A stretch of DNA of 64,000 nucleotides from a virus: the IMG/VR virus record IMGVR_UViG_3300026292_000623, positions 1-64,000 of that record; one strand, 5' to 3'. Below the pieces are notes generated by a model. That model did no database searches. It saw only the letters and a list, made by a program, of their open reading frames with translations, and was not told the DNA's origin. Of the stretch, positions 30,096-54,132 are shown one piece after another (positions within the stretch are counted from its first letter, which is position 1; each line of letters opens with the position of its first letter). A program made the position numbers and the translations under genes.

Positions 30096-30992
30096 TTAAG
30101 TTCCAATAGCATTACCAAACAGATAAACGTGTACTCTTGCCGCAACATTGTATCCACGTTTAAATGCCTTTTCAGCAACTTTACCTGCACCTGCTGTCTG
30201 CTCTTCTTCCCTAGCACCTGTTGGCATAACCCATACTGGCCAGTCAACACCTGCTTCTTTAAACTGTTTTATTACTGATTCCATTTCATCCCACTCTCTA
30301 TCATCTGGGCCTACTACAAACTTTAATTGCCCTTTGCTAGATAGTTTTCTGTACTCTGCAACTACTTCAGGCTTAATAGCCTTATCAGGTTTCTCACCTG
30401 ATACTGTAAATAGTTTAGGACTACAACTAAAAAATATTTCAGTTTTAATTCTTTTAACCCATTCTATAAATGGTTCTCTTAACTTCTGTGTACCATTAGT
30501 TTCAAATGTCATAGAACCTGGCAAGTTATTTTGTCTTTCAAGTTCTTCATATATTCCTATTGTAGCCATTTGCCCTGTTAGCATTAATGGCTCACCACCT
30601 GTAATACATAAATGCTGTCTTTGTCCTGTTACAGGATGTAAAAACAATCCATTTGGATTACTATCATTTTTCATTATGTCTACAATTTTATTTGCTAATA
30701 CTGAAGGAGTTTCTTGGCCCATAAGACTTTTAAACTTTTTGGCCCACGTATAACTACTATCACAACCTTTTTCCCATACAGGTAAATCTTCAACTCTTTC
30801 TACACTTGAAACATCAAAATCTTCAAATGGTAATTCATAACTATCTGGGTTTGTAGGATCTAATTGTCCAAAACCATTACATTGTAGATTACATAAAAAG
30901 AATCTTATCCAGGCAGTAGGAACTCCTGTATAATGTCCTTCGCCTTGTATAGAATGAAATATTTCTGAGTAGTAATATTTTTTCTCTTCCAT
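30096..30992 (-). CDS. queE: 7-carboxy-7-deazaguanine synthase (radical SAM)
   Basis: EIFHSIQGEG..TG.P..WIRF..CNL.C, CDS, ITGGEP, ETNGT, SPK, RVHV. Confidence 0.9.
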   Translation of the reverse strand: MEEKKYYYSEIFHSIQGEGHYTGVPTAWIRFFLCNLQCNGFGQLDPTNPDSYELPFEDFDVSSVERVEDLPVWEKGCDSSYTWAKKFKSLMGQETPSVLANKIVDIMKNDSNPNGLFLHPVTGQRQHLCITGGEPLMLTGQMATIGIYEELERQNNLPGSMTFETNGTQKLREPFIEWVKRIKTEIFFSCSPKLFTVSGEKPDKAIKPEVVAEYRKLSSKGQLKFVVGPDDREWDEMESVIKQFKEAGVDWPVWVMPTGAREEEQTAGAGKVAEKAFKRGYNVAARVHVYLFGNAIGT

Positions 30993-31073: not shown

Positions 31074-31583
31074 TTACTGTCTTTGAAACGTAAGTTCAAA
31101 AACTTTACCATTTTGATCAGTAAATCTAATTGTACTGTGGCTATACACGTTTTGTTGAACTGTATTATATGTTGTATTAGTTTCACAGATTGTTTGTCTC
31201 TTATAACCAACAATATTATTGTTATTATTCTGAGCATTGTTTTTACCAATCTTAGAACCAATTACTGCACCAACACCTGTTGCAACTTTACTACCGTCTC
31301 CACTTCCAATTTTAGAACCAATTACACCACCAATAATAGCACCTAGTATTTCTGCACCATCTGTACTACCACCTGTGTTTCCATATATCGGAACATCAAC
31401 TTCTCTACAAGTTTGAGTAGATGGGTTGGGTGTTTTGATTGTTTTAACGATATAATGATCTTTAATATACGCCCTATCTGTCTTTACAGGATCAGATGTA
31501 AATCCACCTGCACTAGCAGTTGACGTATATGTTAAAATTATTGCAACTGTTAATGTTACAATACTAGTTATTACTTTTCCCAT
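31074..31583 (-). CDS. exported glycine-zipper protein (YcfJ-like)
   Basis: Signal peptide; GAIIGGVIG..IG.G.G...AT.VGAVIG; flanking Cys pair. Confidence 0.75.
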   Translation of the reverse strand: MGKVITSIVTLTVAIILTYTSTASAGGFTSDPVKTDRAYIKDHYIVKTIKTPNPSTQTCREVDVPIYGNTGGSTDGAEILGAIIGGVIGSKIGSGDGSKVATGVGAVIGSKIGKNNAQNNNNNIVGYKRQTICETNTTYNTVQQNVYSHSTIRFTDQNGKVFELTFQRQ

Positions 31584-32358
31584 TTGTAACCTCCTTGATT
31601 AATAGGGTTTCATTTACCTTAACAACGTTCTTTATTATACTATGATTTAGGATATTTGTCAATGCTTTTACATCTTTAGGAAAACAAGATCCACTATATC
31701 CTAGTGTTCCTTGAGAGTTTGGCACTAGCATATGTGTCGATCCTATAGTAGGAAATTTTCCTAATACACTAGATAAAGTGCCATAGTTTACCTCAGGTTG
31801 TATTTTATCATATAACTCATGAAACCAAGCCACTTTTGTAGCTAACCAGGCGTTATGAGTATATTTTATTATACTTGCTGTCTCTCTATTGGTAAATTCT
31901 GTTGGAATAGCAACTGTATGAATTTCATTAAATAAGTCTGCCCACCAAACGGCATCATCATACATATTATCATGATGTCCAAATATCTGTATATGTTGGT
32001 TAGCAAAATCTTCTTTTGCACTTGCTTCACGTAAAAATTCTGGGTTGTATACTACGTTATTATCGTAGCCACTTAATAAGTCTGGTGTTACAGTACTCTT
32101 TAATAATATTCTTTCTCCGTGGTTGCATAACTTTAATACTTCTCTAATATGTTTATCGTCGCAACTTCCATCTTCTTTACTTGGTGTTGGTACACAAATA
32201 ATTATACCATCTGCTTTAATTATAGCATCAATAGGATAATTTTCTGGATATAGTTTAGGATCAACTCTAGTTACTTCTACTCCGCCTTGCTCTAAAAAGT
32301 CAGCAACTGTTCCTCCTACAAACCCACAACCAAATACTGCTATCTTATATGTCTTCAA
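31564..32358 (-). CDS. UDP-glucose/GDP-mannose 6-dehydrogenase family (short form)
   Basis: GCGFVG, CVPTP, KSTV.P, NPEFLRE, K...NAWLATKV, GYSGSCFPKD. Confidence 0.85.
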   Translation of the reverse strand: MKTYKIAVFGCGFVGGTVADFLEQGGVEVTRVDPKLYPENYPIDAIIKADGIIICVPTPSKEDGSCDDKHIREVLKLCNHGERILLKSTVTPDLLSGYDNNVVYNPEFLREASAKEDFANQHIQIFGHHDNMYDDAVWWADLFNEIHTVAIPTEFTNRETASIIKYTHNAWLATKVAWFHELYDKIQPEVNYGTLSSVLGKFPTIGSTHMLVPNSQGTLGYSGSCFPKDVKALTNILNHSIIKNVVKVNETLLIKEVTNGKSNN

Positions 32359-34249: not shown

Positions 34250-34797
34250 CTTGGTTCATAAGTTTCTGCACCACCTACTTTTACTCTTTCACTCATTTTA
34301 GTGGCTCTTAGTCTTTGAGTTTTACCAGCATCTAAACCACATACAGTACAAAATGCTTTTATTTTTAATACTTCATCAGCTAATGCTAAACATCTTGATG
34401 TAGTTTCAAAAGGCACTCCTCTACTATCTTGATCTAATCCTGATACTACAAAATTAACTCCTTCTCTCAAACCTTCTTCAATGAACCACATAGTTTCTGA
34501 CGTATCAAAAAATTGCACTTCATCAATGAATACTGTGTGAAAGTTATAAGGTTTAATTGTGTAATTGTCTTTGACTAACTCAAGGTCTATTACTGCTACT
34601 GCTGGATGTTTTAATTGATTGTGTGTGACAATAAAATTACTATCATACCTATCATCAATAACTGGCTTCAGCACTAGAACCTTGTGTCCGCCATGTTCGA
34701 TAAAGAGCAATCGCTTTAGAAGCTCACTGCTCTTACCGGCAAACATAGGGCCTGCGATGACCTCTAGTTTGCCTCTTTTATATGGTTTAACTGACAT
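34222..34797 (-). CDS. tdk: thymidine kinase
   Basis: GPMFAGKS, IDEVQFF, GLD.D, CTVC, GG.E.YEPRC. Confidence 0.95.
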   Translation of the reverse strand: MSVKPYKRGKLEVIAGPMFAGKSSELLKRLLFIEHGGHKVLVLKPVIDDRYDSNFIVTHNQLKHPAVAVIDLELVKDNYTIKPYNFHTVFIDEVQFFDTSETMWFIEEGLREGVNFVVSGLDQDSRGVPFETTSRCLALADEVLKIKAFCTVCGLDAGKTQRLRATKMSERVKVGGAETYEPRCNEHWEAK

Positions 34798-37484
34798 TAA
34801 AATGTTACCTTATAGTTAATGCCAAATTCAACAGTATCGTTTTCAGTACCTGCATAGTTTGTTCTCATCTCTGCAAAACTTGAGATTGAACTATTTTCAG
34901 TAAGTCCTACATTGTAAAACACACCAAAGTCTATCTCTCTATTTTGTGACTTTAACGAACTGTTTATTTCGCTATTCTCAATATCACCATTAGCACTTAC
35001 TGTAGAAGGCATATTAAACTTCGCATCTCCATCTACTATAGCAACTGGCATACTTGTTGTAAACCCGAAGCTATGGGTGTCTATTGTACGTTTAACACCT
35101 ATTGTAGCACTATTTGACAACATTAAATCTGCACTTTTAAGCATTGAGCTTTTATCAACGTTTAGATTAGTGAAACCTACTGTTGCACTACCAAACACGT
35201 TAACGCCATTTCCTACATCAAAATTATTGTTATAACCTACGTATGTAGTTTGTGAACCGTTAACTCTCATAAGAGGACTATCAGCAATATTACCTAAGAA
35301 GCTTTTATCTTCTGTAATATAACCTATTGTAAACTTATTTATGTTTGTAGCAATTCCGTACTGACTAGCATTTTCATTGACACTTAACATTGTATTATAC
35401 GATACTGGTACAAAATGTCCACCTGTATAACCTGCATAATAGTTTGTATCAAATCCTGCTTTAGTATTTAAAATAGCACTAGTAGTTCTAGTATCATTAA
35501 CTTGAACCATACTATTTCCATCAAAGTAATAGTCTCTGTCATATTCGTCAACTACCATTACTTCAGTCAATGCTGAAATTGTAGCACCACCACTCATTGC
35601 AATAGTACCGTCTACACTAACTGTATTTCCATCTGCTCTACCTGTTGTAGGAATACCAACTGCACCTTGTGGAAGTGTTGCCGCATCTAAATCCAACAAA
35701 CCTTGACCATGAACGTTAACATCATAATTTGCTATTGTTTTATCTGCTGTCGTTAACAATAACTTCTTAATGTTTTCACCTTTCATATGTGGCCACATTT
35801 GATGTATAATAGCAACTGCACCACTAACCTGTGGAGCCGCCATCGACGTACCACTATTAGTTCTGTATTCACCATTAGCATCTGGTGCCGCAATATATCT
35901 ACCTGGCGCCATAATATAATGATCACTAACTCTATTATTTGAATTACAAGTATTAGTAATCGCATTAAAGTCATAACAGATAGTACCTGCTTTGTTACTA
36001 CCGTGTGCTATCTTATTAGTTCTTGTATCCCAATTACCAACAATAATAACTCTTTCACCAACACCTTCTTCAAATGCAAGTTTACTTGGTTGTCCTGCAA
36101 AATCAGCATTTTGATTACCTGCCGCTAATACAAGAATTGCTTCATGACCTTTCATTGCTTCAACAATATTTTTGTAATATAGATCACTACTGTATAGAGC
36201 CGCATATCCATATTTGTCATATGTAATACCATTTCTACCTCTTGTATCATTTGCAAAATACATACCCGGTGATACTTCTGTAGCACTATTCATATAAGTT
36301 CTATCAAAGTTATAGTTTGCACTTATATTGATTACATCAGCACCATGCTCAACTGACCAAGCAATAGCTTCATCGGCTGTACTAAAATCAAACATACCAA
36401 AGTTCCAGGCTGTTTTAGCAATTAATAGATCTGCATCTGGAGCAACACCTGTAGTACCTACGCCATCTAAATTACCTGCCGCGATACCTGCAACGTGTGT
36501 TCCGTGTGAATATCTATTTCCATCATGAATAGTTTCATGACCAGCTTTACAAGCACCTGTGAAACATTGTGCTCCTATAATTTTATTTTCAAACTCACTG
36601 TGGTCCATATCAATACCAGTATCTAGTATAGCAATGACACTACCGTCACCTGTATATCCTCTACTCCAGGCCGCCGGTGCACCAATTACTTCTAAATGAT
36701 TACCATAGTGTTTAGAAAGAACTTCTGTAGTATACCACTCATTAATTCTACTATTCATATTCCAAACTGCATCTTTATAAGTTTGTGTATCATACAAAGA
36801 TACATCAGACCTAGCAAGATATTCAGCTTCAGTTAAAGTAATAACTACTGTATCTTCTTTTGGTTCTTCAATTACTACTGCATATTCTCTGATAAGTTCT
36901 CTTTCAACTTTTGTTTCAGTTTCAGCAGTCTTTTCTATTTTGATTGTTTTAACATCACTAGTAGAACCTTTTGATCCATCACTATAATGTTTAATAGTTT
37001 GTGTATTCTGCCAATGTTGTTTTTTAATAGGAGTAGAATATATTTTAGTAACAACTGCAAATTCTTTAACAGTATTACCAGTTCGTTCTTCTACAACTAC
37101 TGAACTTTCACTAGCAACGACAGTATCACCTTTAGTCACAATAACACCATTAGTAACTTTAGTTTCTGTTTTAACCAAAGTAACTACTGATTCTTTTTTA
37201 TTGATCAGTGATTGAAATTTTACTATTTCACCTTTTTGCCATTCATATCTGGCTTTCATATTTTGGAACCATGAATATTTTCCAAATAGGTGATCGTACC
37301 TTGTAATTAAACTACCGTACGTTTTATTACTTCTCTCATATGCTTTAATCATTGAAGTAGAGAAGCTGATTTGCAATCCGCTATTTAAACTAGACGCATA
37401 ATCATAATAGCTCTTAAATTGACTAGCATTTGCTGATGTAGACAATCCTACAATTAACAATGCAACTGCAATTAGCTTTTTCAT
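34797..37484 (-). CDS. exported S8 subtilisin-like protease with C-terminal beta-barrel (autotransporter-like)
   Basis: Signal peptide; DTG, HGTHVAG, AAGN, GTSMAAP; amphipathic beta C-terminus ending YKVTF. Confidence 0.85.
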   Translation of the reverse strand: MKKLIAVALLIVGLSTSANASQFKSYYDYASSLNSGLQISFSTSMIKAYERSNKTYGSLITRYDHLFGKYSWFQNMKARYEWQKGEIVKFQSLINKKESVVTLVKTETKVTNGVIVTKGDTVVASESSVVVEERTGNTVKEFAVVTKIYSTPIKKQHWQNTQTIKHYSDGSKGSTSDVKTIKIEKTAETETKVERELIREYAVVIEEPKEDTVVITLTEAEYLARSDVSLYDTQTYKDAVWNMNSRINEWYTTEVLSKHYGNHLEVIGAPAAWSRGYTGDGSVIAILDTGIDMDHSEFENKIIGAQCFTGACKAGHETIHDGNRYSHGTHVAGIAAGNLDGVGTTGVAPDADLLIAKTAWNFGMFDFSTADEAIAWSVEHGADVINISANYNFDRTYMNSATEVSPGMYFANDTRGRNGITYDKYGYAALYSSDLYYKNIVEAMKGHEAILVLAAGNQNADFAGQPSKLAFEEGVGERVIIVGNWDTRTNKIAHGSNKAGTICYDFNAITNTCNSNNRVSDHYIMAPGRYIAAPDANGEYRTNSGTSMAAPQVSGAVAIIHQMWPHMKGENIKKLLLTTADKTIANYDVNVHGQGLLDLDAATLPQGAVGIPTTGRADGNTVSVDGTIAMSGGATISALTEVMVVDEYDRDYYFDGNSMVQVNDTRTTSAILNTKAGFDTNYYAGYTGGHFVPVSYNTMLSVNENASQYGIATNINKFTIGYITEDKSFLGNIADSPLMRVNGSQTTYVGYNNNFDVGNGVNVFGSATVGFTNLNVDKSSMLKSADLMLSNSATIGVKRTIDTHSFGFTTSMPVAIVDGDAKFNMPSTVSANGDIENSEINSSLKSQNREIDFGVFYNVGLTENSSISSFAEMRTNYAGTENDTVEFGINYKVTF

Positions 37485-37591: not shown

Positions 37592-38134
37592 TTATAAAAT
37601 TTCGTATAAACTCTGCCCTTTTTGGCGTATTTTTGTGTTACCTGTGTCAGTTTCTAGCTCTTTATTATCGTACTCTATGCCATAGATTATAACATCATTA
37701 TCTATGCTTTTAGCATAGAATTTAAGTAACTCTTTTTTAAACTCGTCAGTGTCTATTTCAGCTTGAAAAAACATACCTTTTTCGTATGTAAGGGATTTTA
37801 GATAGAATCCAGGATCTCTATCATTTGGATCTATTATTTGATTTCTTGTTATTGTTGGATTTGCTGATGTATATACATCTTTGCCATTCTCATCTTTTAC
37901 TGTAATTTTACAATCATCTGCATTCACTCCATAAGTGTGTGCTATATCACCTGTATCATAAAAGTTTCCAATATATCTTTCATCATCTTCAGGAATATTA
38001 TCTGCATAATTAAACAAATGATCTGTTAATGCTTCATCGGGTTGAGATTCCCAATACTCGTAGGCTTCTTGCGATAGTGTACCTACTACAATTTCTCCGC
38101 CAGAACCAGTAATTTCAATATCATATATTGCCAT
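37592..38134 (-). CDS. hypothetical acidic phage protein
   Basis: Likely start MAIYDIEITGSGGE; EKG.FF motif. Confidence 0.6.
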   Translation of the reverse strand: MAIYDIEITGSGGEIVVGTLSQEAYEYWESQPDEALTDHLFNYADNIPEDDERYIGNFYDTGDIAHTYGVNADDCKITVKDENGKDVYTSANPTITRNQIIDPNDRDPGFYLKSLTYEKGMFFQAEIDTDEFKKELLKFYAKSIDNDVIIYGIEYDNKELETDTGNTKIRQKGQSLYEIL

Positions 38135-38621
38135 AGTTCCTTTCTCCTTCCCAAGGAAATACAACCCAGACGTCTTTCTCCATCTTGTTTATTTCCAAGG
38201 CTGTGTAGTCTACTTCACCAAATTTACTGGCTCCATTATCTACAAGAGCGGCAGTTCTTACATTAAGACCCCATCGTGCATCATCAAATTCTGTTTCCAT
38301 CCAGTCTTGTTGTATCCACTTAAAGGTACGACCACTATCATTTATATCATCAAATACTAAAATGTTTTTACCATTTCTAGCATCTTGTGCCATTCTCTTA
38401 TTGCTTTCGGGATCGTTGTCTTTGTCTACATCTCTAAATCTAACATCAAGAGCATACATTTTAATACCTGTTGTGTTAGACATAATAGTGGCAGGAACTA
38501 ATCCGCCACGTGTTAACCCAACTATGTAGTCGGGTCTCCAATTATCTGCATACATAAGATTATTAATAGTAGTAATCATATGTTCGATATCTTTCCAAGT
38601 GTAATAAACTTTATCTACCAT
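38121..38621 (-). CDS. type I phosphoribosyltransferase (Gpt/XGPRT-like)
   Basis: VGLTRGGLVPA, ILVFDDINDSGRT PRPP loop, WVVFPWE. Confidence 0.9.
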   Translation of the reverse strand: MVDKVYYTWKDIEHMITTINNLMYADNWRPDYIVGLTRGGLVPATIMSNTTGIKMYALDVRFRDVDKDNDPESNKRMAQDARNGKNILVFDDINDSGRTFKWIQQDWMETEFDDARWGLNVRTAALVDNGASKFGEVDYTALEINKMEKDVWVVFPWEGERNYGNI

Positions 38622-38633
38622 GACTACTATTCC

Positions 38634-39320
38634 TTACCTTGGTGCAAATTCTTGTTGTAATTTGATTTGATTAAAGAACTCTGCTTTTGTTCCTGGGTCT
38701 TGAAAGAAAGCACCTTCAAGAACTGTGGTTTGAGTTAAACTGCTATGGGCCATTATGCCTCTATTTTCACAACAACCATGTGTTGCTTGAACATATACTC
38801 CAACATTTTTACTGCCTGTTGCTTTCATAATTTCGTGTGCAATTACATTATTAAGTTCTTCTTGTAATGTTCCACGTCTTGCACACCATTGTGCAATTCT
38901 TGTATACTTACTTAATCCAATAAGTTTCTCTGCCGCAAGTATTCCAATATATGCAACACCACTTACTGGTTGATGATGATGAGAGCAAACACTTTTAAGT
39001 TCACTTCGTACAACTAACATTCCTTTATAACCATCTTCAATATGATTAGGAAATGCCGTTGCATTTGGCATAGGATTATACCTACCACTCATTAATTCAT
39101 TAATATACATTTTAGCTAAACGTCTACCTGTATCCATACTGTTAGGATCGTTTTCTCTGTCAATTACTAAACTGTCTATTATTGCTTCAAACTTTGGTGT
39201 AAGTTCTTTTATAAGTTCTTGTTTATCACCTTCTTGTAATACCTTACTGATATTATCACCTGCCCAATATCTAATATTAGCATCTTTTAGTTTTTGTTTT
39301 ATTTCATCACTTTTTGCCAT
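38634..39320 (-). CDS. folE: GTP cyclohydrolase I
   Basis: SVCSHH, GLSKY.R, LQEEL, ATHGC...RG. Confidence 0.95.
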   Translation of the reverse strand: MAKSDEIKQKLKDANIRYWAGDNISKVLQEGDKQELIKELTPKFEAIIDSLVIDRENDPNSMDTGRRLAKMYINELMSGRYNPMPNATAFPNHIEDGYKGMLVVRSELKSVCSHHHQPVSGVAYIGILAAEKLIGLSKYTRIAQWCARRGTLQEELNNVIAHEIMKATGSKNVGVYVQATHGCCENRGIMAHSSLTQTTVLEGAFFQDPGTKAEFFNQIKLQQEFAPR

Positions 39321-40314
39321 TTTTATTTTTCTCCGAGTTAAAGACGAGGATGTCTGCTGAGTGCTTAACCTCTTTTCGTGTGTACCAGTTATATGCTGTC
39401 TTCACAATGTGATTCAAATCATACTGTGGAGTCCAACCTAATACACTATTTGTTATAAAATCATTTGCAACTAGTTTCGCAGGATCTCCTGCTCTAGCTG
39501 GTCCAAATGTTACATTAGGTTTTAAAGGAGTATTATCTTCTACGGCTTTTACAATTTCTTTATTACTGTAGCCTTTTCCTTCACCTAAATTAAATACATG
39601 AGCACCTATGTTACTCTTTGTAAATTCTACTGCTTTTGCTATTCCGTTAGCAACATCTTCTACATGAACATAATCTCTTATACAAGTTCCATCTGGTGTT
39701 TTAAAATTATCACCATTAAGTGTAAAGTCTTTTCCGTCCATAGTCATTTCCATAAGTTTAGCAATAATATGAGTTCCATCTTTTTCTTGACCTAACTCAC
39801 CTTCGCTATCTGCACCTGCTACATTAAAGAAACGTAAACTTACACTAGATAAACTATAAGCTCTAGCAAAGTCTTTTAACATAATCTCTGTCATACGTTT
39901 ACTCCAGCCATATGGATTAACTGGTTTTACTTCATCTGTTTCTGTGCAATATTCACCGTCTGGTTCTCCATAAACTGCCGCACTACTTGCAAATACAAAT
40001 CTACTTATACCAACAGTTTTACAAGCATCTAGTAAAACTAGAGTGCCAGTTACATTATTAAAATAATAAGATGCAGGATCAAGTACACTAGGGCCTACTA
40101 AACTTGTTGCACCAATATGTACTACACAATCAACATCTTTTAAAAATGCTAAAATAGCAGGATCTGTATAACTACCTTCAAAGAAATCATTATAATAATC
40201 ATGTCTTATAGGATTACGATCAACTGCTACTACAAAATGTTTATCGTTTATTAATTTTTTACAAGTTTGAGCACCAATATATCCATTTGCTCCTGTTACT
40301 AATACCTTAGCCAT
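39307..40314 (-). CDS. galE: UDP-glucose 4-epimerase
   Basis: TGANGYIG, SSAAVYG, YGWSK, RFFNVAGA, DGTCIRDYVHV. Confidence 0.9.
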   Translation of the reverse strand: MAKVLVTGANGYIGAQTCKKLINDKHFVVAVDRNPIRHDYYNDFFEGSYTDPAILAFLKDVDCVVHIGATSLVGPSVLDPASYYFNNVTGTLVLLDACKTVGISRFVFASSAAVYGEPDGEYCTETDEVKPVNPYGWSKRMTEIMLKDFARAYSLSSVSLRFFNVAGADSEGELGQEKDGTHIIAKLMEMTMDGKDFTLNGDNFKTPDGTCIRDYVHVEDVANGIAKAVEFTKSNIGAHVFNLGEGKGYSNKEIVKAVEDNTPLKPNVTFGPARAGDPAKLVANDFITNSVLGWTPQYDLNHIVKTAYNWYTRKEVKHSADILVFNSEKNKNGKK

Positions 40315-41532
40315 TTAATACTTTGCCTCCGCTACGTGATCTCTATATCTATTACCACTACGTAACCATTGATTAGCTTTATAGTTTCCTTCCATAATAT
40401 CTATCATACGTTCAATAGTACCATCTGTCCAATCACTTAACTTACCCATTTTCTCACTTGGCTTTTCTAATCCAGTCATAATTTTAGCAACTGCATCTTC
40501 TTTACTCCAAGGAGTATAAAGTCTACTATAATCATTTGCAAACGTTTCTGGAAAGCTTCTGTAAGCTGGATATACTACGTTACAACCTAATGTATCTGCT
40601 TCACTTACTGTATTACTAACCCAATCTTGTAATGCACAATTAAATAAAACTTTACTATCATTTACTATATTATAATAATCGTTTTTTTGCAAGTCTTTAT
40701 ATATCTTTAATTGACCTTTTTCTTCCATTTCCAAAGCTCTAGTTAAATACTTTTCATTATTACTTCTTAATGGACCACCACTTAATACTGCAAACTCTAC
40801 AGGATCAATTCTATCTGTTAAATCTTTTCTATCAAAGTTTCTAGTTTGTTCATGCACCATTTCAATAACATCCATAAAAAAGTCTGGTTGTTTCTCTTGA
40901 TCAAAACGTGCCGCAAATACAACTCTATTACTACGTTCTGCCCATGGCTTAACTTTATTGTTTACTCTTTCTAATACTTCTTCTTTACCAAAACTTAAAC
41001 CTGATATATTATAAATTGGTGCCTCCCAACCTGCTATTCTCATATGAGCAACCATCTCTTCATTTGTTGCTAGTATATGAACATTAGGAATTTCATTACA
41101 CATTTTTTCATACAAGCCCATCCATTTGCTCATACCCCATACGTGAACAAAATCATCTGGATCAACAGCCTGTGCTAAACAACGTAAGAAAATCTTAGGT
41201 CGTTGTGCTTCTGGAATTTGACACATAATATATGGTAAACTCTCAATACCTGGTTGAAACATATCTTCGAAGAAAACTGCATCTTCATGAGTTACTTCTC
41301 CGTTTCTCATCATTTGTACTAAATTCATAAGTTGACTCATACCAAAGTAACTTCTACCGTGTGCATCTAATACTTGTCCTACACTAATTGATTTTGTGTT
41401 ATCAATAGTAGTACCTGGTACAATAACATAATCTATATTTTTCTTTTTAAATACTCTTTCGCTCCACTCTTGTAATTGTAGAGTATATCTGCCTTCATAT
41501 GGTTCTAATCCCATATAGAATAATTTACGCAT
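40315..41532 (-). CDS. GT-B fold glycosyltransferase (GT4-like)
   Basis: VVFAARFDQEKQP; ALQDWVSNTVSEA..LG..VYP (D/E-x7-E type); 405 aa two-domain size. Confidence 0.75.
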   Translation of the reverse strand: MRKLFYMGLEPYEGRYTLQLQEWSERVFKKKNIDYVIVPGTTIDNTKSISVGQVLDAHGRSYFGMSQLMNLVQMMRNGEVTHEDAVFFEDMFQPGIESLPYIMCQIPEAQRPKIFLRCLAQAVDPDDFVHVWGMSKWMGLYEKMCNEIPNVHILATNEEMVAHMRIAGWEAPIYNISGLSFGKEEVLERVNNKVKPWAERSNRVVFAARFDQEKQPDFFMDVIEMVHEQTRNFDRKDLTDRIDPVEFAVLSGGPLRSNNEKYLTRALEMEEKGQLKIYKDLQKNDYYNIVNDSKVLFNCALQDWVSNTVSEADTLGCNVVYPAYRSFPETFANDYSRLYTPWSKEDAVAKIMTGLEKPSEKMGKLSDWTDGTIERMIDIMEGNYKANQWLRSGNRYRDHVAEAKY

Positions 41533-41947
41533 CAGCTTTCACCTCCTCTACTTCGTTATCATTTGAAGCTTCTTCTTTTGGTTGAATCCAAAGTTTGCCC
41601 ACGTGTATTTTTAGTTTTTTAGGGCTACGATCTTTCTGCATTTTAATTTGAATGTCAAAAGTAATAGCATTTTCCTTTTCAGTAGGAACTATTTCAAAGC
41701 TGAAAATCTTTCTAGCTTCTCGTAGATCTCCCAAATAAGAATTAAATACACTAATCAATTGATTAGTTTCTTTTTCATTATACATATAACCATCATATGG
41801 TTGTATAATCTTAAGTAGGTCATATTTAATATCATTGATATTATAGAACCCACTCATTCTAAAGTAACGAACCGCGACACTTTCTTCTTTGCGTTCACGT
41901 TTTACAAAGTCTTTTTTTACTTCAACGTTTTTATTATCTGTAGACAT
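41525..41947 (-). CDS. hypothetical protein
   Basis: Intact ORF within the deazaguanine cluster. Confidence 0.6.
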   Translation of the reverse strand: MSTDNKNVEVKKDFVKRERKEESVAVRYFRMSGFYNINDIKYDLLKIIQPYDGYMYNEKETNQLISVFNSYLGDLREARKIFSFEIVPTEKENAITFDIQIKMQKDRSPKKLKIHVGKLWIQPKEEASNDNEVEEVKADA

Positions 41948-41950
41948 TGT

Positions 41951-42352
41951 CTATCCTTTAGTTACAGGGTTAAAAGTCATTGTTGCACCATTCTCGTTAT
42001 CTTCTGCAACACTTATTGTTATTGATCTATTTGGATACCTATTATGAATTTGATTAGCTAACTCTTCACCAATCATTTCACAACTTCTATGATTAAGTTC
42101 TAGGACTCCATCTTTAGCATATAATGATTCTAGCCATCTTTTAAATTGAATAAATTCAATATCTCTGTCATCGTGGAATACATCAATTGCTACTCTAAAG
42201 TGAAAAATATGTCTGTGTGCATATCCTAAGAAACTCACATCATATTCATCACCTGTTGCAAGAGCTGGGTCATCTTTTGCCGCAGGGTACAAATGTACTC
42301 CTTCTTTTTGAAATGTTACCCAAATTTGCCTTGTCGTCACATCTAGTGCCAT
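41951..42352 (-). CDS. QueD-like T-fold protein (possible DpdL-type CDG decarboxylase)
   Basis: H...LGYAHRHIF metal motif, SCE, C-terminal EDNENG; lacks the CxxxHGH of canonical QueD. Confidence 0.7.
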   Translation of the reverse strand: MALDVTTRQIWVTFQKEGVHLYPAAKDDPALATGDEYDVSFLGYAHRHIFHFRVAIDVFHDDRDIEFIQFKRWLESLYAKDGVLELNHRSCEMIGEELANQIHNRYPNRSITISVAEDNENGATMTFNPVTKG

Positions 42353-42353
42353 A

Positions 42354-42551
42354 TTATTCTTTCTCTTCTCTATCTGCCTTCATTAATTTTAGCATTTCCC
42401 AAAGTTTCCAGTCAATTGCTTCTAGATACTTCATTAATTGCTTTTTGTAAACATCATCTGCTACAGCCTCATCAACTGGTGCGTCTGGATTTACAACTCC
42501 TGGTTCAGTAGCCTTAGCTTCTTCATCCATTAAACGTATTTTTTTAGTCAT
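42354..42551 (-). CDS. hypothetical protein
   Basis: GGAG-type RBS; IDWKLWE. Confidence 0.55.
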   Translation of the reverse strand: MTKKIRLMDEEAKATEPGVVNPDAPVDEAVADDVYKKQLMKYLEAIDWKLWEMLKLMKADREEKE

Positions 42552-42561
42552 TTAGATTCTC

Positions 42562-43101
42562 CTATTCGATTATCTTATCTGATTTATATTGATCCCATTG
42601 TGTGAATCTATCGCGATCCATCAAATCATGAACTCTATGAGTCCATACTCCTTTGTTGGTTGCATTAAAATCTGTGTCATCAATTTTAATACAAGCATTA
42701 TATCCCAACTGTTCAATGTCTGGAACCTTAACACTAATCATTGGTATAAAATTATTATATTTTGTGTAACCTGCTTCTTGTATCCATTCTAAGTATTCAT
42801 GTTCAAAGTCTAATGTTACAAGTAATCCTTCTTCACATAGTGTCTTAACTAGATTATCCCAACCTTCTTCTTGTTGCTTTAATATCTCATCATTATCTGA
42901 TAAATCAAAACTTTGATTTGCTCCTAGATAAACGTGTTCAACATTGTTTTTCATTGCAAGTTCTATTACTTCTTCTGGATCTTGCATACCTACAACAAAC
43001 AAAGTTTCTTTACCAAATGCAGGTGTATGTTCTATTTCAACACCCTTAAAGAATGTTATACCGTCAATTGGTTTTGAACTTGTTGAGTAATCTCTTTTCA
43101 T
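42562..43101 (-). CDS. hypothetical protein in deazaguanine cluster
   Basis: Enzyme-like motifs GVEIEHTP..G..TLFV, HVYLGANQSF, KIDD.DF.ATN.GVW. Confidence 0.65.
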   Translation of the reverse strand: MKRDYSTSSKPIDGITFFKGVEIEHTPAFGKETLFVVGMQDPEEVIELAMKNNVEHVYLGANQSFDLSDNDEILKQQEEGWDNLVKTLCEEGLLVTLDFEHEYLEWIQEAGYTKYNNFIPMISVKVPDIEQLGYNACIKIDDTDFNATNKGVWTHRVHDLMDRDRFTQWDQYKSDKIIE

Positions 43102-43284
43102 TTAATAAGCCTCTGCTAATTGTGTTTCTAATCTTGTGATTTGCATTTTTAAATCAAGTTTTTTATACTTTAATTCTTTTAATACTTCTTCACTAGCATA
43201 CTGATTATATAACGTATTAATTTCTTTGTCAAGCATTCTGTGTTTTTTCTTTAATGTATTTAGATATGTTGCTTTATCAGCCAT
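43102..43284 (-). CDS. DUF465 / YdcH-like coiled-coil protein
   Basis: L.KKH..LD.EI ... LK.KKL.LK..I. Confidence 0.65.
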   Translation of the reverse strand: MADKATYLNTLKKKHRMLDKEINTLYNQYASEEVLKELKYKKLDLKMQITRLETQLAEAY

Positions 43285-44785
43285 TTGTTTCCTCCAAGTT
43301 ACTTAAGAAGTCTTCTGCGGCCTCTACTTGTTCGCTAGTATACTCGCCGTCATCAACGTCTTGTATATCATCACCAGAATCAAATAAACTATCAAATGCA
43401 CTCTGTGAAGTTTTGATAGACTTCATTCCACTGAAATGAGTAAGCATTGATTCTGCTTCTTCTAACATCTGCATTGGCTTTTCACTCTTAAACAATTTAT
43501 TAATGAACTCCGTAACATAAATTACATCTCTAGGAACCCATAAATCAAATTCTTCTTGTTTAGGTTTTACTTTACGCCATTCTAAATGACTTGGCTTATA
43601 TCTTGTACAAGCAATATCTGCCAATGTATTTGCTCTTTGCACACTCTCAATATGTTGGTATACATTGTGTGCCATTAATAAGAAGTATGAGAAACTATCC
43701 CAACTTGTCTTACCTTCTTTACCAATTTTGTTTAACATACCTGGGCCCATATAACATAAGTCACCCATTGTCATACGTTCTCCAATAGGACTATTGAATG
43801 GGAAAGGTATATTGCTATGTTGAAATTTCTTATCGTCAACTGCTTGTTCCATTACATAACTAAACTTATCGTTACGATGAACGTGTTGACTATATGCTTG
43901 TCCTTTGGCTGTAGTAATAAAAGGACTAGCGGCATCATACGTAACCATCATATTAGGATTAATAGTTTCTCTAATGTTACGTTGTATTGCCGTAAAGATA
44001 CAAGACCAATTAAGTTTACTTGTACCCAAATAGTGAATTAAATCTCTGCCTGGATCTAATAATTTCTCATCTCGCATTACAATAAGTCTACGTAGAGCAA
44101 GATGCAACTGCTTCATATTATAACCTGCCATTGCCCAACCTTCAAATGGATAATGCTTAACTGCACTAAACCAATCATCAGCTTGTTGCTCATTGTTACC
44201 TTGTAACACATTTAAGAATTTAGTTTTACCTTGTCTATGTTTAACAAAGTAATCATTATTATGAATAGTATAATCTAAACAATCAACCCAGTCTTTTAAT
44301 CCTGTTTTAGCATTCAATGGTGGAGCCGCCGCTAGTGTAGGAACATCTAACACCATACTATAATCGGCTGTATGCTCTAACCAATTTAAAATTGTTTTAC
44401 GTAAATCATCATCAGTTTTAAAATTAGGCCAATCACATTTAATTACACCTGTTGCAATTTGAAATCCACCACTGTCTCCAAGTATGAAACTATGCTCTCT
44501 ATCTCTTTTTTGAATCATAGGTTCTTGCTCATCACTCTTTGCTGGATCTCGAGTGGCGTGACCTGCAGAGTATAAACCCCACTTGTAACTATAATAAGTA
44601 TCTTTTGGTTTTAGGAAATCAAAGCCATCTATGCCAAACTCAAAGCCCTTGGGCATTCTTTCTGGTTTAACAAAGTCAGGCCTTTTCTGTGCTTGTCTAA
44701 TGAATTTAGAATAAAAACTACTAATGCTCGGCAAGAATACTGAGTAGTCTTTATTACTTTCTGTAAGATTTTTGTTACTTGCCAT
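43277..44785 (-). CDS. guanine transglycosylase (TGT superfamily; DpdA-like)
   Basis: DSGGFQ, MVLDVP, NVLQG, GWA, HYLG, YDAASP, C-terminal HN; no CxCxxC zinc motif. Confidence 0.85.
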   Translation of the reverse strand: MASNKNLTESNKDYSVFLPSISSFYSKFIRQAQKRPDFVKPERMPKGFEFGIDGFDFLKPKDTYYSYKWGLYSAGHATRDPAKSDEQEPMIQKRDREHSFILGDSGGFQIATGVIKCDWPNFKTDDDLRKTILNWLEHTADYSMVLDVPTLAAAPPLNAKTGLKDWVDCLDYTIHNNDYFVKHRQGKTKFLNVLQGNNEQQADDWFSAVKHYPFEGWAMAGYNMKQLHLALRRLIVMRDEKLLDPGRDLIHYLGTSKLNWSCIFTAIQRNIRETINPNMMVTYDAASPFITTAKGQAYSQHVHRNDKFSYVMEQAVDDKKFQHSNIPFPFNSPIGERMTMGDLCYMGPGMLNKIGKEGKTSWDSFSYFLLMAHNVYQHIESVQRANTLADIACTRYKPSHLEWRKVKPKQEEFDLWVPRDVIYVTEFINKLFKSEKPMQMLEEAESMLTHFSGMKSIKTSQSAFDSLFDSGDDIQDVDDGEYTSEQVEAAEDFLSNLEETNG

Positions 44786-44812
44786 TTACTATCCTTTTAA
44801 GTAAGGTTAAAA

Positions 44813-45565
44813 TTATACAGTTAATGCTGGTAAGATGTAGTCGTATTTGCCTAATCCTGAATCAACTGAAATCATTAATGCACCTTTTTTACTGATGTTC
44901 ATTACACAAGTTCCGCTCATACCTAGTCTTAAAATTGCTAACACTTGGTTTAATGGCCATGCATAACCTTCTTTTATTTCTCCATTTACATTGTTTGCAA
45001 ATGTACGTTTACCTGTAAAAGATCCATCAGCGGCACCTACTGTAAGAATTAAATCACCATTATCTGTTTTAACAGTAAAGTTAGGTTCAATTCCACCATA
45101 GATTCCTGCAACTGCTTGAAGCTCACTTACTTTAGCTTTAGTAGGTGCAAAACTTACATCCCACTCAACGCCTTTGAACTTAACAGTTTGTAAGGTCTGT
45201 TCAATAATTTCTTTACTCATAAATCTGTATTGATCCGTATTGCCTTCTTTGTCTTTAAACAATAAATGATCTGGAACTGTTGCTCCATTACGTTCACGAG
45301 TTACTACATCAACTGTAGCATCATCTGTTTGATAGTTAGGTAGTCCTGTAACACCAGATAAAAATCCAAGGTTTCCAAGACCAAATTCGCCGTTAAATTG
45401 TTCAACTGTATTATGCATTTTTGCTTGTAAGATTACTGTACGATCAGCATCCATTGCATCTAATTCAGTAGACTCATCTGTGCCTGTTACTTTCACTGAA
45501 GTAATAAAGCCTAGTCCGGCTGTGTGCTTAACAATGTCTTGCACTATATCACGAGTTTGACTCAT
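44813..45565 (-). CDS. gp45-like DNA polymerase sliding clamp
   Basis: 250-aa alpha/beta protein ending ISKKGALMISVDSG..YDYILPA, as in PCNA/gp45-type clamps; phage replication context. Confidence 0.65.
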   Translation of the reverse strand: MSQTRDIVQDIVKHTAGLGFITSVKVTGTDESTELDAMDADRTVILQAKMHNTVEQFNGEFGLGNLGFLSGVTGLPNYQTDDATVDVVTRERNGATVPDHLLFKDKEGNTDQYRFMSKEIIEQTLQTVKFKGVEWDVSFAPTKAKVSELQAVAGIYGGIEPNFTVKTDNGDLILTVGAADGSFTGKRTFANNVNGEIKEGYAWPLNQVLAILRLGMSGTCVMNISKKGALMISVDSGLGKYDYILPALTV

Positions 45566-46676: not shown

Positions 46677-46705
46677 ATTGTAGCAGATTAAAGGTTACTT
46701 GTCAA
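46677..46705 (-). promoter_or_regulatory. sigma70-type promoter (extended -10)
   Basis: TTGACA-17 nt-TACAAT preceded by TG. Confidence 0.65.
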
Positions 46706-47830
46706 GTCTTTTTGTATTGATTTATAGAAGTCGGTAAACTCTGGAAATGCTTTTTCAAATGAGTTACCATGATAGTTATCATGTCTATTGATAATATTTT
46801 TTCTGCTCCACAAGTCTGGTTGTGTTGGTTTTATATTTTTAAATGCCATTTGTATATTTGGGTAATCTTTCCAATGTTCAACTAGTTTATCTAAATGCTC
46901 TTGTGGTAAACAATCAATGCTTAAATCATATGGGTTGGTAACAAAATTATGCCTCACTTTATCAACATATTTAGATAGGTTATCAAAAACATACCTGGCC
47001 GCATATGAGTTTGGCCAACCTATGGCTGTTCTTATTGTTGTGTGTATTGATTCTGGATCAGTTTGTTTAAATTTATGAAACTCTTTTAGATTATTAAAAA
47101 CTGTATTCCACGTACCTTTATGTCTCCAATAGTTATGTTGATCTTCTATACAATCTATACTGATTGCCAAGTCAACGTCAGCAAATCCACTTACAGTTTC
47201 AAAAACATCATAGCCATGTCTTTTTAATATACTGCCATTGGTTGATATACTTATACTAGTTTCTTTTTCTCTGCCTAGCTCTTTAATCTTATTACATATC
47301 TCATAAAAAGATTTGGTCATTAATGGTTCACCTCCTGCAAACGATACGTGTTCTACAGTATGTAAATTATCTAAACATTGTTTTAATTCGTGTACGTTAT
47401 TAAGTACTCCTGTCTTTCCAAGTTGACCTTCAATTTTGGCGTGTGTACTGCTCAAATAACTGCCACACATTTTACAACTAAAATTACATAGATTACTTTC
47501 TCTATAATCTAAATACCTTAGTACAAACTTATCCGGTTGCCATGGGCGGTGTTCATTTAAATATTTTTCATTGAATTCTTGTCTTAATGATTTAGTTCCT
47601 TTTTGCTCTTGCGATACACAATTAGTACACATAGATGGAAGTATATCAGAATCTAACATAATCTTTTTGAACTTTTCCATTTCTGGATGTGTGAAACGTT
47701 CTTCAAAAGACATATGTCTTTTTTCTTTATTGGGAATTAATATTTTATTTGCTTCGCAACATACTTGTACACCTCCATTAGTATGATCATATGTTGTTAT
47801 CCACGGTGCTATACAAGACGGCTTTTTCAT
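46688..47830 (-). CDS. radical SAM protein with N-terminal twitch/SPASM-like domain
   Basis: CIAPW..VCC..CTNC; CNFSCKMC; AGGEP; STNG. Confidence 0.85.
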   Translation of the reverse strand: MKKPSCIAPWITTYDHTNGGVQVCCEANKILIPNKEKRHMSFEERFTHPEMEKFKKIMLDSDILPSMCTNCVSQEQKGTKSLRQEFNEKYLNEHRPWQPDKFVLRYLDYRESNLCNFSCKMCGSYLSSTHAKIEGQLGKTGVLNNVHELKQCLDNLHTVEHVSFAGGEPLMTKSFYEICNKIKELGREKETSISISTNGSILKRHGYDVFETVSGFADVDLAISIDCIEDQHNYWRHKGTWNTVFNNLKEFHKFKQTDPESIHTTIRTAIGWPNSYAARYVFDNLSKYVDKVRHNFVTNPYDLSIDCLPQEHLDKLVEHWKDYPNIQMAFKNIKPTQPDLWSRKNIINRHDNYHGNSFEKAFPEFTDFYKSIQKDLTSNL

Positions 47831-48924
47831 TATTTAAATTGTTCAGCAAATGGATCGAACTCTGTTCCACATTTCATTGAACATACGCCTAGCTTTCCAT
47901 TTTTGATACTATCTAATTTCCAACTACGTTGTATATCCTGCATGATACCACTTGCGAATACTCCTTCTATTCCGTGTAACTTTGCATTTATCCCATCTTT
48001 ACCACCAGCTCTATCAATAAAGTCCCATATCTGTTCTACTTTAGGATCTTCGTGCCACCACTTATACATTCTACCTGCTGTCCAACAACAAGGCATTATT
48101 AATCCTTCTGCGGTTACAAATATACTATTCTTTTCACCGTTAGCTACTTTACATTTTATTTTAGCTTGGTTGTAATAATTCATCATACCACCATAACTTT
48201 TCTCTATCTCTTTTTGTTTTAATAAAGCAAGGTTTTGGTGTTCTTTCTTTTGTGGTTTTGCTAGTACGGTTGTCTGCTCCCCTTTTCTATTACGTGCTTG
48301 ATGTATCTCTTTTGGCTGACTTGATTGAGTAATAAAACGCCCTGTCTTCTTTTTCATAAACTTCTCAACGCCCCACTCTTTGGCTAACTGTTCAGCTCTA
48401 TCTACATCTTTTTCACTATGTTCAAATATTAAATAATCCCATCTTGCTCTTCCACCTGCATTAATAAATGCTTTCATATTACGTTCAACGTGTTCCCACT
48501 TAACACCTTGTCTATATAAATGATTAGTTTCTTCTAGTCCATCTACACTAAAGATTACACAACCTTTTTTGCCTATAACTTTAGCTACTTCTGCCCACCA
48601 TTCAGGTTTCTTTGCACCTGCATTAGTGTTCATACTTAACCACATATTAGGATTACAATCACGAAACCATTGAAATATTTCTAATGTATCTCTGGCACTA
48701 ATAGGATCACCCAAGTTACCACACATATACATCGTGTGTAATTGAGCTATAAAATCGTGTGGAAATATATCAATACAATGATCTAATGTAAGTTCTGCTT
48801 CTTTACCTTTGATGTGTGGATTTACTTCGCCGCCATTGACATTACGATCACACATAGGGCATGATGCATTGCACCGTTGGGTCACTTCGAGGTGAACTTC
48901 GTTTATGGCATTGTACTTGTACAT
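47830..48924 (-). CDS. radical SAM protein with C-terminal SPASM/twitch domain
   Basis: CNASCPMC, CGNLGDP, FSVDG; C-terminal KC...PCCW...CSMKC. Confidence 0.85.
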   Translation of the reverse strand: MYKYNAINEVHLEVTQRCNASCPMCDRNVNGGEVNPHIKGKEAELTLDHCIDIFPHDFIAQLHTMYMCGNLGDPISARDTLEIFQWFRDCNPNMWLSMNTNAGAKKPEWWAEVAKVIGKKGCVIFSVDGLEETNHLYRQGVKWEHVERNMKAFINAGGRARWDYLIFEHSEKDVDRAEQLAKEWGVEKFMKKKTGRFITQSSQPKEIHQARNRKGEQTTVLAKPQKKEHQNLALLKQKEIEKSYGGMMNYYNQAKIKCKVANGEKNSIFVTAEGLIMPCCWTAGRMYKWWHEDPKVEQIWDFIDRAGGKDGINAKLHGIEGVFASGIMQDIQRSWKLDSIKNGKLGVCSMKCGTEFDPFAEQFK

Positions 48925-52372: not shown

Positions 52373-52401
52373 ATTATATACAGTAGTGGTTGATTTGTCA
52401 A
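52373..52401 (-). promoter_or_regulatory. consensus sigma70 promoter
   Basis: TTGACA-17 nt-TATAAT. Confidence 0.75.
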
Positions 52402-54131: not shown

Positions 54132-54132
54132 C

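Follow-up and report, generated by a model that had tools for sequence, protein, structure and literature searches.

The window analysed here comprises the first 64,000 nucleotides (64 kb) of the 72,213-bp IMG/VR virus record IMGVR_UViG_3300026292_000623 and contains a run of genes for 7-deazaguanine chemistry in which a glycosyltransferase (GT) gene is embedded. The record is about 21 % complete according to CheckV, which implies a jumbo phage of roughly 340 kb. In the reading that we prefer, and to which we give about an even chance, the run serves an uncultured jumbo phage as a 7-deazaguanine DNA-modification module of DpdA3/DpdL type, extended by a dedicated GT. The gene identities, folds and gene linkage are established here, and it is the gene linkage that suggests a hexose on a deazaguanine in DNA.

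We infer every catalytic step of the corresponding route, together with its DNA target, acceptor atom, sugar identity and salvage loop. Together with a QueD from another part of the genome, FolE and a QueE-like enzyme would convert GTP to 7-carboxy-7-deazaguanine (CDG), from which a DpdL-type T-fold protein would form 7-deazaguanine (DG), an activity that is itself a published proposal. The TGT-fold DpdA3-like enzyme would then exchange guanine in the phage DNA for the deazaguanine base. The GT4-like GT would attach a hexose, either to the free base before insertion or to the base in DNA, and the adjacent GalE would supply UDP-galactose or UDP-glucose. Most likely, the XPRT-like phosphoribosyltransferase (PRTase) would salvage the released guanine to GMP, which would feed FolE again.

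The run extends from position 45565 down to 38121 on the minus strand, which carries nearly all genes of the window (G+C about 33 %). As the original prediction had described, it consists of eleven co-oriented genes, and their coordinates give spacings from a 44-nt overlap to a 27-nt gap. Among them are a DpdA3-like transglycosylase of 502 amino acids (AA) (P0001, 43277..44785), a DpdL-type T-fold protein of 133 AA (P0122, 41951..42352; phrog_17812, E 5.5e-33), a GT-B (GT4-like) glycosyltransferase of 405 AA (40315..41532), the UDP-glucose 4-epimerase GalE (39307..40314), the GTP cyclohydrolase I FolE (38634..39320) and a xanthine/guanine-type PRTase (38121..38621). The labels GalE, FolE and PRTase, given earlier from the sequence, are each matched by a family model: TIGR01179 with 297.5 bits against an equivalog cut-off of 262.3, PF01227 with 127.6 bits (E 4.7e-37; also phrog_2197) and PF00156 with 42.8 bits (E 4.5e-11; also phrog_8995). 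The PRTase also matches the XPRT model NF006613 at E 3.2e-14, below the cut-off of that model. A megablast search of the region against phage records returned no near-identical DNA.

Linkage of the glycosyltransferase to deazaguanine genes

The gene arrangement is far beyond chance according to the co-occurrence counts. Eighty related viral loci with a transglycosylase identity of 43-97 % were combined with the window and with PA5oct, a Pseudomonas jumbo phage (Wroclawvirus), and the plus-strand open reading frames of these 82 loci were clustered together. The DpdA-like family is present in all 82 loci, the clamp-like family in 80, DpdL in 72, the conserved protein u179 in 63 and the GT in 62, followed by FolE (51), QueE (43), the PRTase (41), GalE (14) and a UDP-glucose dehydrogenase (UGDH)-like family (13). 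Most of the absences are due to contig ends. With PA5oct left out and at least 4 kb required beyond DpdA/DpdL, the GT was found in 53 of 54 loci, and the single miss is a contig that ends at DpdL. DpdL and the GT are separated by a median of 278 bp, and the GT is followed by FolE in 22 loci, by GalE in 14 and by a UGDH-like gene in 4. Sugar-nucleotide genes are thereby part of the module, with GalE directly after the GT in 14 loci and the UGDH-like gene downstream of the GT in 13, and the presence of such dedicated genes points to a stoichiometric use of sugar instead of a trace modification. The PRTase gene lies between FolE and QueE in 41 of the 82 loci.

The same association is seen among phage records. 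A tblastn search with the window GT against 50,697 phage records gave 15 matches from the PA5oct-like, Xanthomonas X1/BUDD, Acidovorax ACP17 and T4-like cyanophage BUCT-ZZ01 lineages, all 15 of which lie at most 1.6 kb from a DpdL match. The GT of BUCT-ZZ01 is 69 % identical to that of the window while its DpdL is only 33 % identical, which points to an exchange of the GT between deazaguanine modules. A hidden Markov model (HMM) of the GT family added the phages Phosso and BCSR5. With the same HMM, phiST, RHph_I1_18, Bakedbeans, Ahp1 and D479 showed no GT at up to 9 kb from DpdL. Across 11 cultured DpdL phage types, the GT is therefore present in six and absent near DpdL in five.

Some of these phages show further peculiarities of the module. 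In BUCT-ZZ01 (L093, 3599-10533; host S. elongatus PCC 7942), QueE, XGPRT, QueD, FolE and a second GT-like protein of 447 AA are followed by a 416-AA protein, a probable transglycosylase, then by DpdL and the window-type GT; the second GT-like protein has a homologue in a chromosomal island of Shimia (32 %, E 7e-67). The 469-kb genome of Phosso (L094) holds clamp, DpdL, GT, FolE and QueE together at about 150 kb and its DpdA-like gene about 170 kb away (323249-324589), so the module can be split. In the Vibrio phage Bakedbeans (L096, 8212-9363), which has no GT nearby, DpdL is the C-terminal part of a fused 383-AA protein, gp176.

A corresponding gene order was found in PA5oct, in which gp162-gp170 match the window with a clamp-like protein, DpdA3 (38.5 % identity), a member of the GT family, DpdL (58 %), PRTase and QueE. 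Cui, Hutinet et al. (NAR 2023; PMC10516641) list DpdA3, DpdL, FolE, QueD and QueE of PA5oct in their Supplementary Data S1, and the PA5oct row of that table does not contain the GT between DpdA3 and DpdL, QCG76198.1. This GT of 353 AA belongs to the other of the two subfamilies, with about 20 % identity to the window GT, and PA5oct has no full GalE but only a 172-AA epimerase-like fragment. In the Acidovorax phage ACP17, gp119-gp126 combine QueD, FolE, u179, a transglycosylase, the GT (HMM E 2e-87), DpdL and QueE in one run that adjoins a DNA polymerase gene. Unlike in the window, the ACP17 transglycosylase is classed as DpdA2 (PMC10516641), and no PRTase or GalE is nearby. The GT (gp124) lies between DpdA2 and DpdL, and the gene next to the GT in X1, annotated as queuine tRNA-ribosyltransferase, is DpdA2-like in our own reading. 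The GT is thus seen with both DpdA2 and DpdA3-like enzymes, which indicates that it follows the deazaguanine module and not one type of transglycosylase. The Cellulophaga phage phiST shares with the window FolE, QueE, a DpdL-type T-fold protein with the motif LxxxHRHxF, a very divergent TGT-fold transglycosylase, the lack of QueC and a position next to replication genes (compare PMC10516641). However, it has no GT, GalE, u179 or PRTase within 9 kb of DpdL, where MazG and a kinase-like gene are found instead, and its DpdA3 of 259 AA, compared to 502 AA in the window, is not detectably similar by profile comparison.

Outside viral records, a DpdA-like gene was present at all 21 GT loci on bacterial and archaeal genome contigs and contigs of metagenome-assembled genomes (MAGs). 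Fourteen of these loci also hold DpdL, and most of them look like phage contigs binned into MAGs. The remaining seven carry the pair of GT and DpdA-like gene with no DpdL, FolE or QueE nearby and include the isolates Shimia ponticola, Sulfitobacter sp. M05, Pelagibacterium luteolum and Azospirillum isscasi. With 53 of 54 and 15 of 15 loci in phages and 21 of 21 here, the GT is tightly linked to dpdA and dpdL, and the co-occurrence check named in the original prediction was passed. The presence of the GT both with and without DpdL fits an acceptor that is common to all 7-deazaguanines.

Bacterial chromosomal islands with the GT/DpdA-like pair were seen at loci L113, L120, L121, L119, L112, L115, L117 and L118. 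Integrases, ABC-3C and OLD-like genes surround the pair, and CBASS-like genes flank the Pelagibacterium locus (L121). At the Shimia (L113) and Azospirillum (L120) loci, a gene for a Vut_1 (YhhQ-type) transporter precedes the GT, and the pair is followed by a protein of 538-585 AA that has no assignment. YhhQ is a preQ0 importer. A YhhQ column is also part of the supplement table of Cui et al. 2023 (PMC10516641). The islands could represent a restriction-modification-like use of the same chemistry. The bacterial Dpd restriction-modification system (bDpdA, 7ui4) resembles the window in its TGT-fold DNA transglycosylase (Z 15.9), and the GT/DpdA-like pair likewise occurs in bacterial islands among defence genes, but no GT is known as a part of the Dpd system. 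PADLOC models gave no match for P0001, the GT, u179 or DpdL at E 0.001, and dpdB, dpdC and dpdD-K were not seen.

Transglycosylase, T-fold protein and expected base

The transglycosylase P0001 had been described as TGT/DpdA-like, a label that no sequence model supports and that its predicted fold and its PA5oct homologue uphold. P0001 matched nothing in Pfam (E 0.01), NCBIfam, PHROGs or PADLOC, and nothing among PDB sequences whether searched as a single sequence, as a 37-sequence profile or with a 58-AA motif piece. The Pfam TGT model PF01702 has no match in P0001 or in the whole contig, and the scanned phage DpdA2 and DpdA3 examples also miss it. An AlphaFold2 model built on the 37-sequence alignment reached a pLDDT of 86.6 and a pTM of 0.86, and Foldseek matched it to the TGT of Zymomonas mobilis (E 7.9e-8, prob 1.00). 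In the VIA structural search against representatives, the top five matches are all from the TGT superfamily, namely ArcTGT (Z 18.8), QTRT2 (17.7), bTGT (17.2), the DNA preQ0 insertase DpdA 7ui4 (15.9) and Cap10 (13.8), while generic TIM barrels start at 11.8. As judged from the model, P0001 belongs to the TGT fold and superfamily. It carries GDSGGFQ at 103-109, of which D104 to Q109 are invariant in the 37 sequences, as are D147 and D284, and G103 is near-invariant; D104, D147 and D284 follow predicted strands. The catalytic Asp positions, that is, the DSGG-type motif and the nucleophile Asp, were assumed to be those of the Z. mobilis TGT. An hhalign comparison sets GDSGGFQ on ADSGGLQ of the Xanthomonas X1 protein annotated as TGT, with an E-value of 0.028 that is not significant.

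By tblastn, P0001 is 38.5 % identical over 92 % of its length (E 1e-108) to QCG76197.1 of PA5oct, which Cui et al. 2023 list under DpdA3 in their Supplementary Data S1 (PMC10516641). Matches were obtained for PA5oct-like Pseudomonas jumbo phages, for Vibrio phage 2.275.O and for Sinorhizobium phage Phosso, weak ones for P. putida phages, and none for phiST or Campylobacter phages at E 1e-3. By this sequence relationship, P0001 would be a DpdA3 as drawn by Cui et al. 2023. At least 7,711 metagenome relatives of the transglycosylase were scored.

The structural ranking bears on a different reading, in which tRNA in place of DNA is the substrate of the TGT-fold enzyme and the sugar is attached to a queuosine-like base, as in the mannosyl- and galactosyl-queuosine of vertebrates. 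The best structural matches are tRNA enzymes (ArcTGT 18.8 and bTGT 17.2, compared to 15.9 for DpdA), and tRNA does contain sugar-bearing queuosines (PMC10690763). However, less than 3 units separate these Z values, which all belong to distant matches with 12-16 % identity. In addition, the gene follows the clamp-like gene in 80 of the 82 loci and adjoins DNA polymerase in PA5oct and Phosso, and the searches revealed neither QueC or QueF nor other genes for queuosine tailoring. The question of placement among tRNA or DNA enzymes raised by the original prediction was answered in favour of the phage DNA enzymes through the PA5oct homologue classed as DpdA3, and the DNA of PA5oct resists cleavage at G-containing restriction sites (PMC12191111). 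We consider a tRNA target very improbable and retain the reading with a DNA target.

The T-fold protein P0122 had been called QueD-like, a label that has to be replaced. It reads L42-G-Y-A-H46-R47-H48-I-F50, corresponding to LxxxHRHxF, the signature described for DpdL as opposed to the CxxxHGH of QueD (PMC10516641), and has no PTPS match. In tblastn searches it is 53.9 % identical to the DpdL of ACP17 (E 8e-38), 58.3 % to that of PA5oct and 32.2 % to that of phiST (E 2e-7), and Cui et al. 2023 list the accessions of all three phages under DpdL in their supplement (PMC10516641). The DpdL family occurs in 72 of the 82 loci, as given above. Judged by its sequence, P0122 is a protein of DpdL type, the proposed CDG decarboxylase, and not a QueD. 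The same publication proposes that decarboxylation by DpdL gives rise to 2'-deoxy-7-deazaguanosine (dDG), a nucleoside that takes the place of all dG in phiST (PMC10516641).

No match to QueC, QueD, QueF, ArcS (DUF5591) or Pfam TGT was found in the 72-kb contig. The earlier observation that queC, queF and arcS are lacking is thereby correct for the contig, but such absences say little because about four fifths of the genome are missing. A PTPS/QueD gene is encoded elsewhere in the genome in all five fuller relatives, one of which is 99 % complete. A clear QueC gene is absent in four of the five, including the 99 %-complete one, and the fifth gave only a weak partial match. Since the T-fold gene is DpdL, QueD lies elsewhere and QueC is missing in four of five relatives, the expected base is DG and not CDG or preQ0. 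This changes the earlier pathway logic, which had been based on CDG.

The claim of a queE gene 7 kb downstream held in part. The radical-SAM (rSAM) protein P0125 (298 AA, 30096..30992, minus strand) is 37 % identical to QCG76203.1 of PA5oct, which is annotated as QueE and is listed as QueE by Cui et al. 2023 (PMC10516641). QueE models match only its N-terminal residues 10-39 (E 3.7e-10, 39.9 bits against a cut-off of 260), and a full-length match to the QueE model was not obtained. Its family is the one counted as QueE in 43 of the 82 loci.

The glycosyltransferase, its acceptor and competing readings

The label of a GT-B glycosyltransferase proved sound, as the Glycos_transf_1 model matches above its gathering score (27.3 bits, cut-off 26.4) and the AlphaFold2 model of the protein (pLDDT 82.2) has the GT-B fold with two Rossmann domains. 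In structure comparisons, the model matches sucrose-phosphate synthase at Z 24.7 over 342 residues, TreT at 24.0, BshA at 23.9 and PimA at 23.0, with BshA, PimA, TreT, PglA and WaaB all at Z 20-24 and an E-value of 6.5e-12 for BshA. It accordingly stands closest to retaining GT4 enzymes that have small-molecule acceptors. Among the named entries of the viral structure library, the ACP17 protein matches best (E 9.5e-15). A C-terminal E-x7-E (E/D-x7-E) donor-site motif is typical of GT4 enzymes. The family has the consensus QETLGISxYEG, the window GT reads D303-x7-E311, and E311 is invariant in 42 sequences. In total, 25 columns are invariant across the 42 members and common to both branches of the family. 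The first branch, of the window type, comprises proteins of about 390-405 AA with 59-100 % identity at 14 loci; the second, of the PA5oct type, comprises proteins of about 357 AA that are 18-24 % identical to the window GT at 48 loci. No fused forms of the GT were found among proteins of 764-2180 AA, which is weak evidence, and a complex prediction for the DpdA3-like enzyme and the GT, run without controls, scored 0.00 and is evidence neither way. At least 8,000 metagenome relatives of the GT were scored.

One of the structural matches suggests that the GT could make a pterin glycoside, with FolE and a PTPS-like T-fold enzyme feeding a tetrahydropterin, as with the cyanobacterial tetrahydrobiopterin (BH4) glucosyltransferase. 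The BH4 alpha-glucosyltransferase of Synechococcus PCC 7942 matches the GT well (5zer, Z 22.2; 5ze7), and FolE and the T-fold gene flank the GT. Nevertheless, this match is no better than that of a dozen other GT4 enzymes, P0122 lacks the catalytic Cys motif of QueD/PTPS, and neither QueE nor a TGT-fold enzyme has a role in pterin glycoside synthesis. The GT also tracks DpdA-like genes at the seven bacterial loci that have no FolE or T-fold gene. We give a pterin product very little credence compared to a deazaguanine acceptor.

Several points weigh against the preferred reading of a module that adds a sugar to the deazaguanine in DNA. The sugar acceptor is the weakest point of the mechanism, as DG offers no handle at C7: it has no hydroxyl, amine or carboxyl group there and no obvious sugar acceptor. 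The closest structures of the GT are small-molecule enzymes (BshA, sucrose-phosphate synthase, PimA) and not DNA-acting ones. The DNA-bound T4 alpha-GT (1y6f) follows only at rank 29 with Z 19.3, and in BFVD the proteins named DNA alpha-GT rank 44 and 46. Whether the GT acts on the base or on DNA cannot be told from the fold, and neither the acceptor atom nor the timing of the transfer, on the free base or on DNA, can be read from the sequence. The five of 11 DpdL phage types without a GT indicate that it is not needed for the core pathway, and within a single virus clade part of the linkage reflects inherited synteny. Moreover, the hhalign comparison of P0001 with the DpdA3 prototype of phiST, CGPG_00065 (gp042, 259 AA), is not significant (E 0.096), and the contig of the window has no QueD, at a completeness of only about 21 %. 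Finally, the authors of the DpdL proposal detected no dDG upon expression in E. coli (PMC10516641). In the ACP17 experiment, DpdA2 and DpdL alone were co-expressed in E. coli, and the GT that lies between them was not part of that test (PMC10516641).

The lack of an obvious acceptor group on DG and the small-molecule character of the nearest GT4 structures favour another explanation, namely that the module makes plain dDG as in phiST and that the GT acts on a different target required by the module, be it a transient intermediate of the pathway, the transglycosylase or another protein, or another position of the DNA. Plain dDG fully replaces dG in phiST (PMC10516641) and in the Vibrio phage VP1 (bioRxiv 10.1101/2025.10.29.685425), the GT content of VP1 being outside this comparison. 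However, phiST, where plain dDG was measured, has no GT, so its dDG says nothing about GT-bearing phages. The GT follows DpdA-like genes even at the seven of 21 loci without DpdL, FolE or QueE, and the dedicated sugar-nucleotide genes of the module point to a stoichiometric use of sugar. Although a module for plain dDG is a serious contender, we regard it as rather unlikely and continue to prefer a sugar on the deazaguanine. The DNA of PA5oct resists five G-containing restriction enzymes, and a preprint on END nucleases infers a modified G in this phage from restriction digests (PMC12191111).

For a GT acting on a 7-deazaguanine base, the only precedent found is N2-glycosylation in natural products. 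HuiG adds N-acetylglucosamine to the 2-amino group of the 7-deazaguanine base in huimycin (PMC7439116), and dapiramicin-type 7-deazaguanines are N2-glycosylated (bioRxiv 10.64898/2026.04.15.718813). In both the huimycin and the dapiramicin-type cluster, a GT lies beside homologues of FolE, QueD and QueE, a likeness by description only. Unlike the window, the huimycin pathway belongs to an actinomycete secondary metabolite, has no DpdA, uses a preQ0-derived O-methylated base and yields a product that is not in DNA.

Among phage enzymes, the alpha- and beta-glucosyltransferases of T4 and other phage DNA GTs resemble the window GT in their GT-B fold, their UDP-sugar donor, their phage origin and a presumed role in restriction evasion. 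However, the known acceptors of T4-type DNA GTs are 5-hydroxymethyl pyrimidines, while the window GT is linked to deazaguanine genes instead. A hydroxymethyl-pyrimidine route was rejected as the main explanation, as the GT tracks DpdA and DpdL rather than ThyA. The contig has no ThyA-type gene and the window carries ThyX; a ThyA-family gene found in three of five relatives (258-350 bits) fits an ordinary thymidylate synthase.

The PRTase allows for a pre-replicative route, in which it would join the deazaguanine to phosphoribosyl pyrophosphate (PRPP) and the nucleotide would be reduced and polymerised, leaving the TGT-fold protein and the GT as accessory. ToyH and TubC join a deazaguanine-type base to PRPP in the synthesis of toyocamycin and tubercidin. 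Such a route would fit the position of the XPRT-like PRTase between FolE and QueE in half of the loci, its presence in BUCT-ZZ01 and PA5oct and the location of the module next to replication genes, as well as the replacement of all G in DpdA3-type phages that is described in the discussion of Cui et al. 2023 (PMC10516641). On the other hand, no PRTase lies within 9 kb of DpdL in ACP17, X1, Phosso or phiST, every phage known to carry deazaguanine bases has a DpdA-family gene (PMC10516641), and the PRTase is equally well explained by salvage of the excised guanine. A pre-replicative route is therefore unlikely in our view, and insertion by the transglycosylase remains preferred.

On a broader scale, a clade of aquatic jumbo phages that is abundant worldwide, together with cultured phages such as PA5oct, ACP17, Xanthomonas X1 and BUCT-ZZ01, may replace guanine in DNA by a glycosylated 7-deazaguanine, with a sugar that varies by lineage: galactose or glucose where GalE follows the GT, and a uronic acid where the UGDH-like gene follows. 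Some bacteria would do likewise and mark their own DNA in defence islands by means of the GT/DpdA-like pair and a YhhQ-type importer. This is put forward tentatively as one joint proposal, at somewhat below an even chance.

To our knowledge, all sugar-bearing DNA bases of phages are pyrimidines. No report of a glycosylated deazaguanine in DNA was found in the full-text literature, a search that did not extend to subscription journals and bioRxiv supplements. The eight phage deazaguanines described in Cui et al. 2023 are all sugar-free, in agreement with what the original prediction had stated, and the main text of that publication contains no mention of glycosyl or sugar (PMC10516641). If the preferred reading is true, a glycosylated deazapurine would be a new chemical class of DNA base and the first sugar-bearing purine in DNA. 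It would bear on the evasion of restriction and CRISPR, on what is targeted by defences that sense modifications, for example END nucleases and Dag glycosylases, on sequencing bias against such phages and on tools for enzymatic DNA labelling. Given the at least 7,711 transglycosylase and at least 8,000 GT relatives in metagenomes, DNA of this kind could be common in marine and lake waters. As several phages with the GT have already been cultured, the prediction is open to a direct test.

Accessory and neighbouring genes

The first gene of the run encodes a sliding-clamp-like protein of 250 AA (44813..45565, minus strand; phrog_12062, function unknown), which lies upstream of the DpdA-like gene in 80 of the 82 loci. 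Its designation as a clamp is consistent with the nearest ESM-feature (language-model) clusters, which are named PCNA-like or carry gp45-slide_C at scores of 0.93-0.98, and with a homologue annotated as clamp in another record, but a profile search against the PDB gave only chance-level ribosomal matches.

The other genes of the run, all on the minus strand, encode smaller proteins. Directly downstream of the transglycosylase is a DUF465 protein of 60 AA (43102..43284), which occurs in 25 of the 82 loci and whose earlier label agrees with its match to PF04325 (26.3 bits). The conserved protein u179 (P0124, 42562..43101) is found between the DpdA-like gene and DpdL in 63 of the 82 loci and also in ACP17. 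It has no Pfam, NCBIfam or PHROG match, neither a profile search of the PDB nor Pfam models applied to 20 members gave a result, and its look-alikes in the atlas are below a useful score (0.78). One record names the gene at the position matching u179 a 'glycosylase' on an unstated basis, and the u179 HMM has no match at that locus. A small protein of 65 AA (42354..42551) is present in 10 of the 82 loci and has no family match. Protein u140 (P0123, 41525..41947) follows DpdL directly in 19 of the 82 loci, likewise with no family match, and its gene overlaps that of the GT by 8 nt.

Downstream of the run, a short UGDH-like protein of 264 AA is encoded at 31564..32358 on the minus strand (PF03721 and PF00984). 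It matches TIGR03026 at E 4.8e-35 over profile positions 73-295 of 413 and is a possible sugar supply for the GT. A short form of about 267 AA is kept in 13 related loci, in the same module and downstream of the GT, and could be either a truncated enzyme under selection or a protein with a new function.

The window also holds a large complement of rSAM proteins with support genes (7280-11826, 46688-48924, 52390-54762, 27293-29584 and 8538-9077). It comprises four clear twitch-domain proteins (NF033640, 215-413 bits) and one weaker one, a SPASM rSAM protein on the plus strand and one short rSAM protein, accompanied by SAM synthetase, MTA/SAH nucleosidase, NifU, SufE and flavodoxin. Two of these rSAM genes are located shortly upstream of the clamp/DpdA run. 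At two related loci (L006 and L056), homologues of the rSAM genes of the window are interleaved with GT, GalE and FolE of the module, and in some lineages these proteins may act as tailoring enzymes on the sugar or the base. Near the rSAM genes, at 4909-5736, a protein of 275 AA resembles the core of a class II aminoacyl-tRNA synthetase (PF00152, E 3.6e-14) and lacks an anticodon-binding domain.

Other genes of the window encode a full-length TctA membrane subunit of a tricarboxylate transporter (59864-61357; PF01970, E 6.7e-81), an S8 subtilase of 895 AA between the PRTase and QueE (34797-37484), an HtrA-like trypsin/PDZ protease (19501-20736) and a DUF2201 metallopeptidase/VWA protein beside an AAA ATPase (15024-17710).

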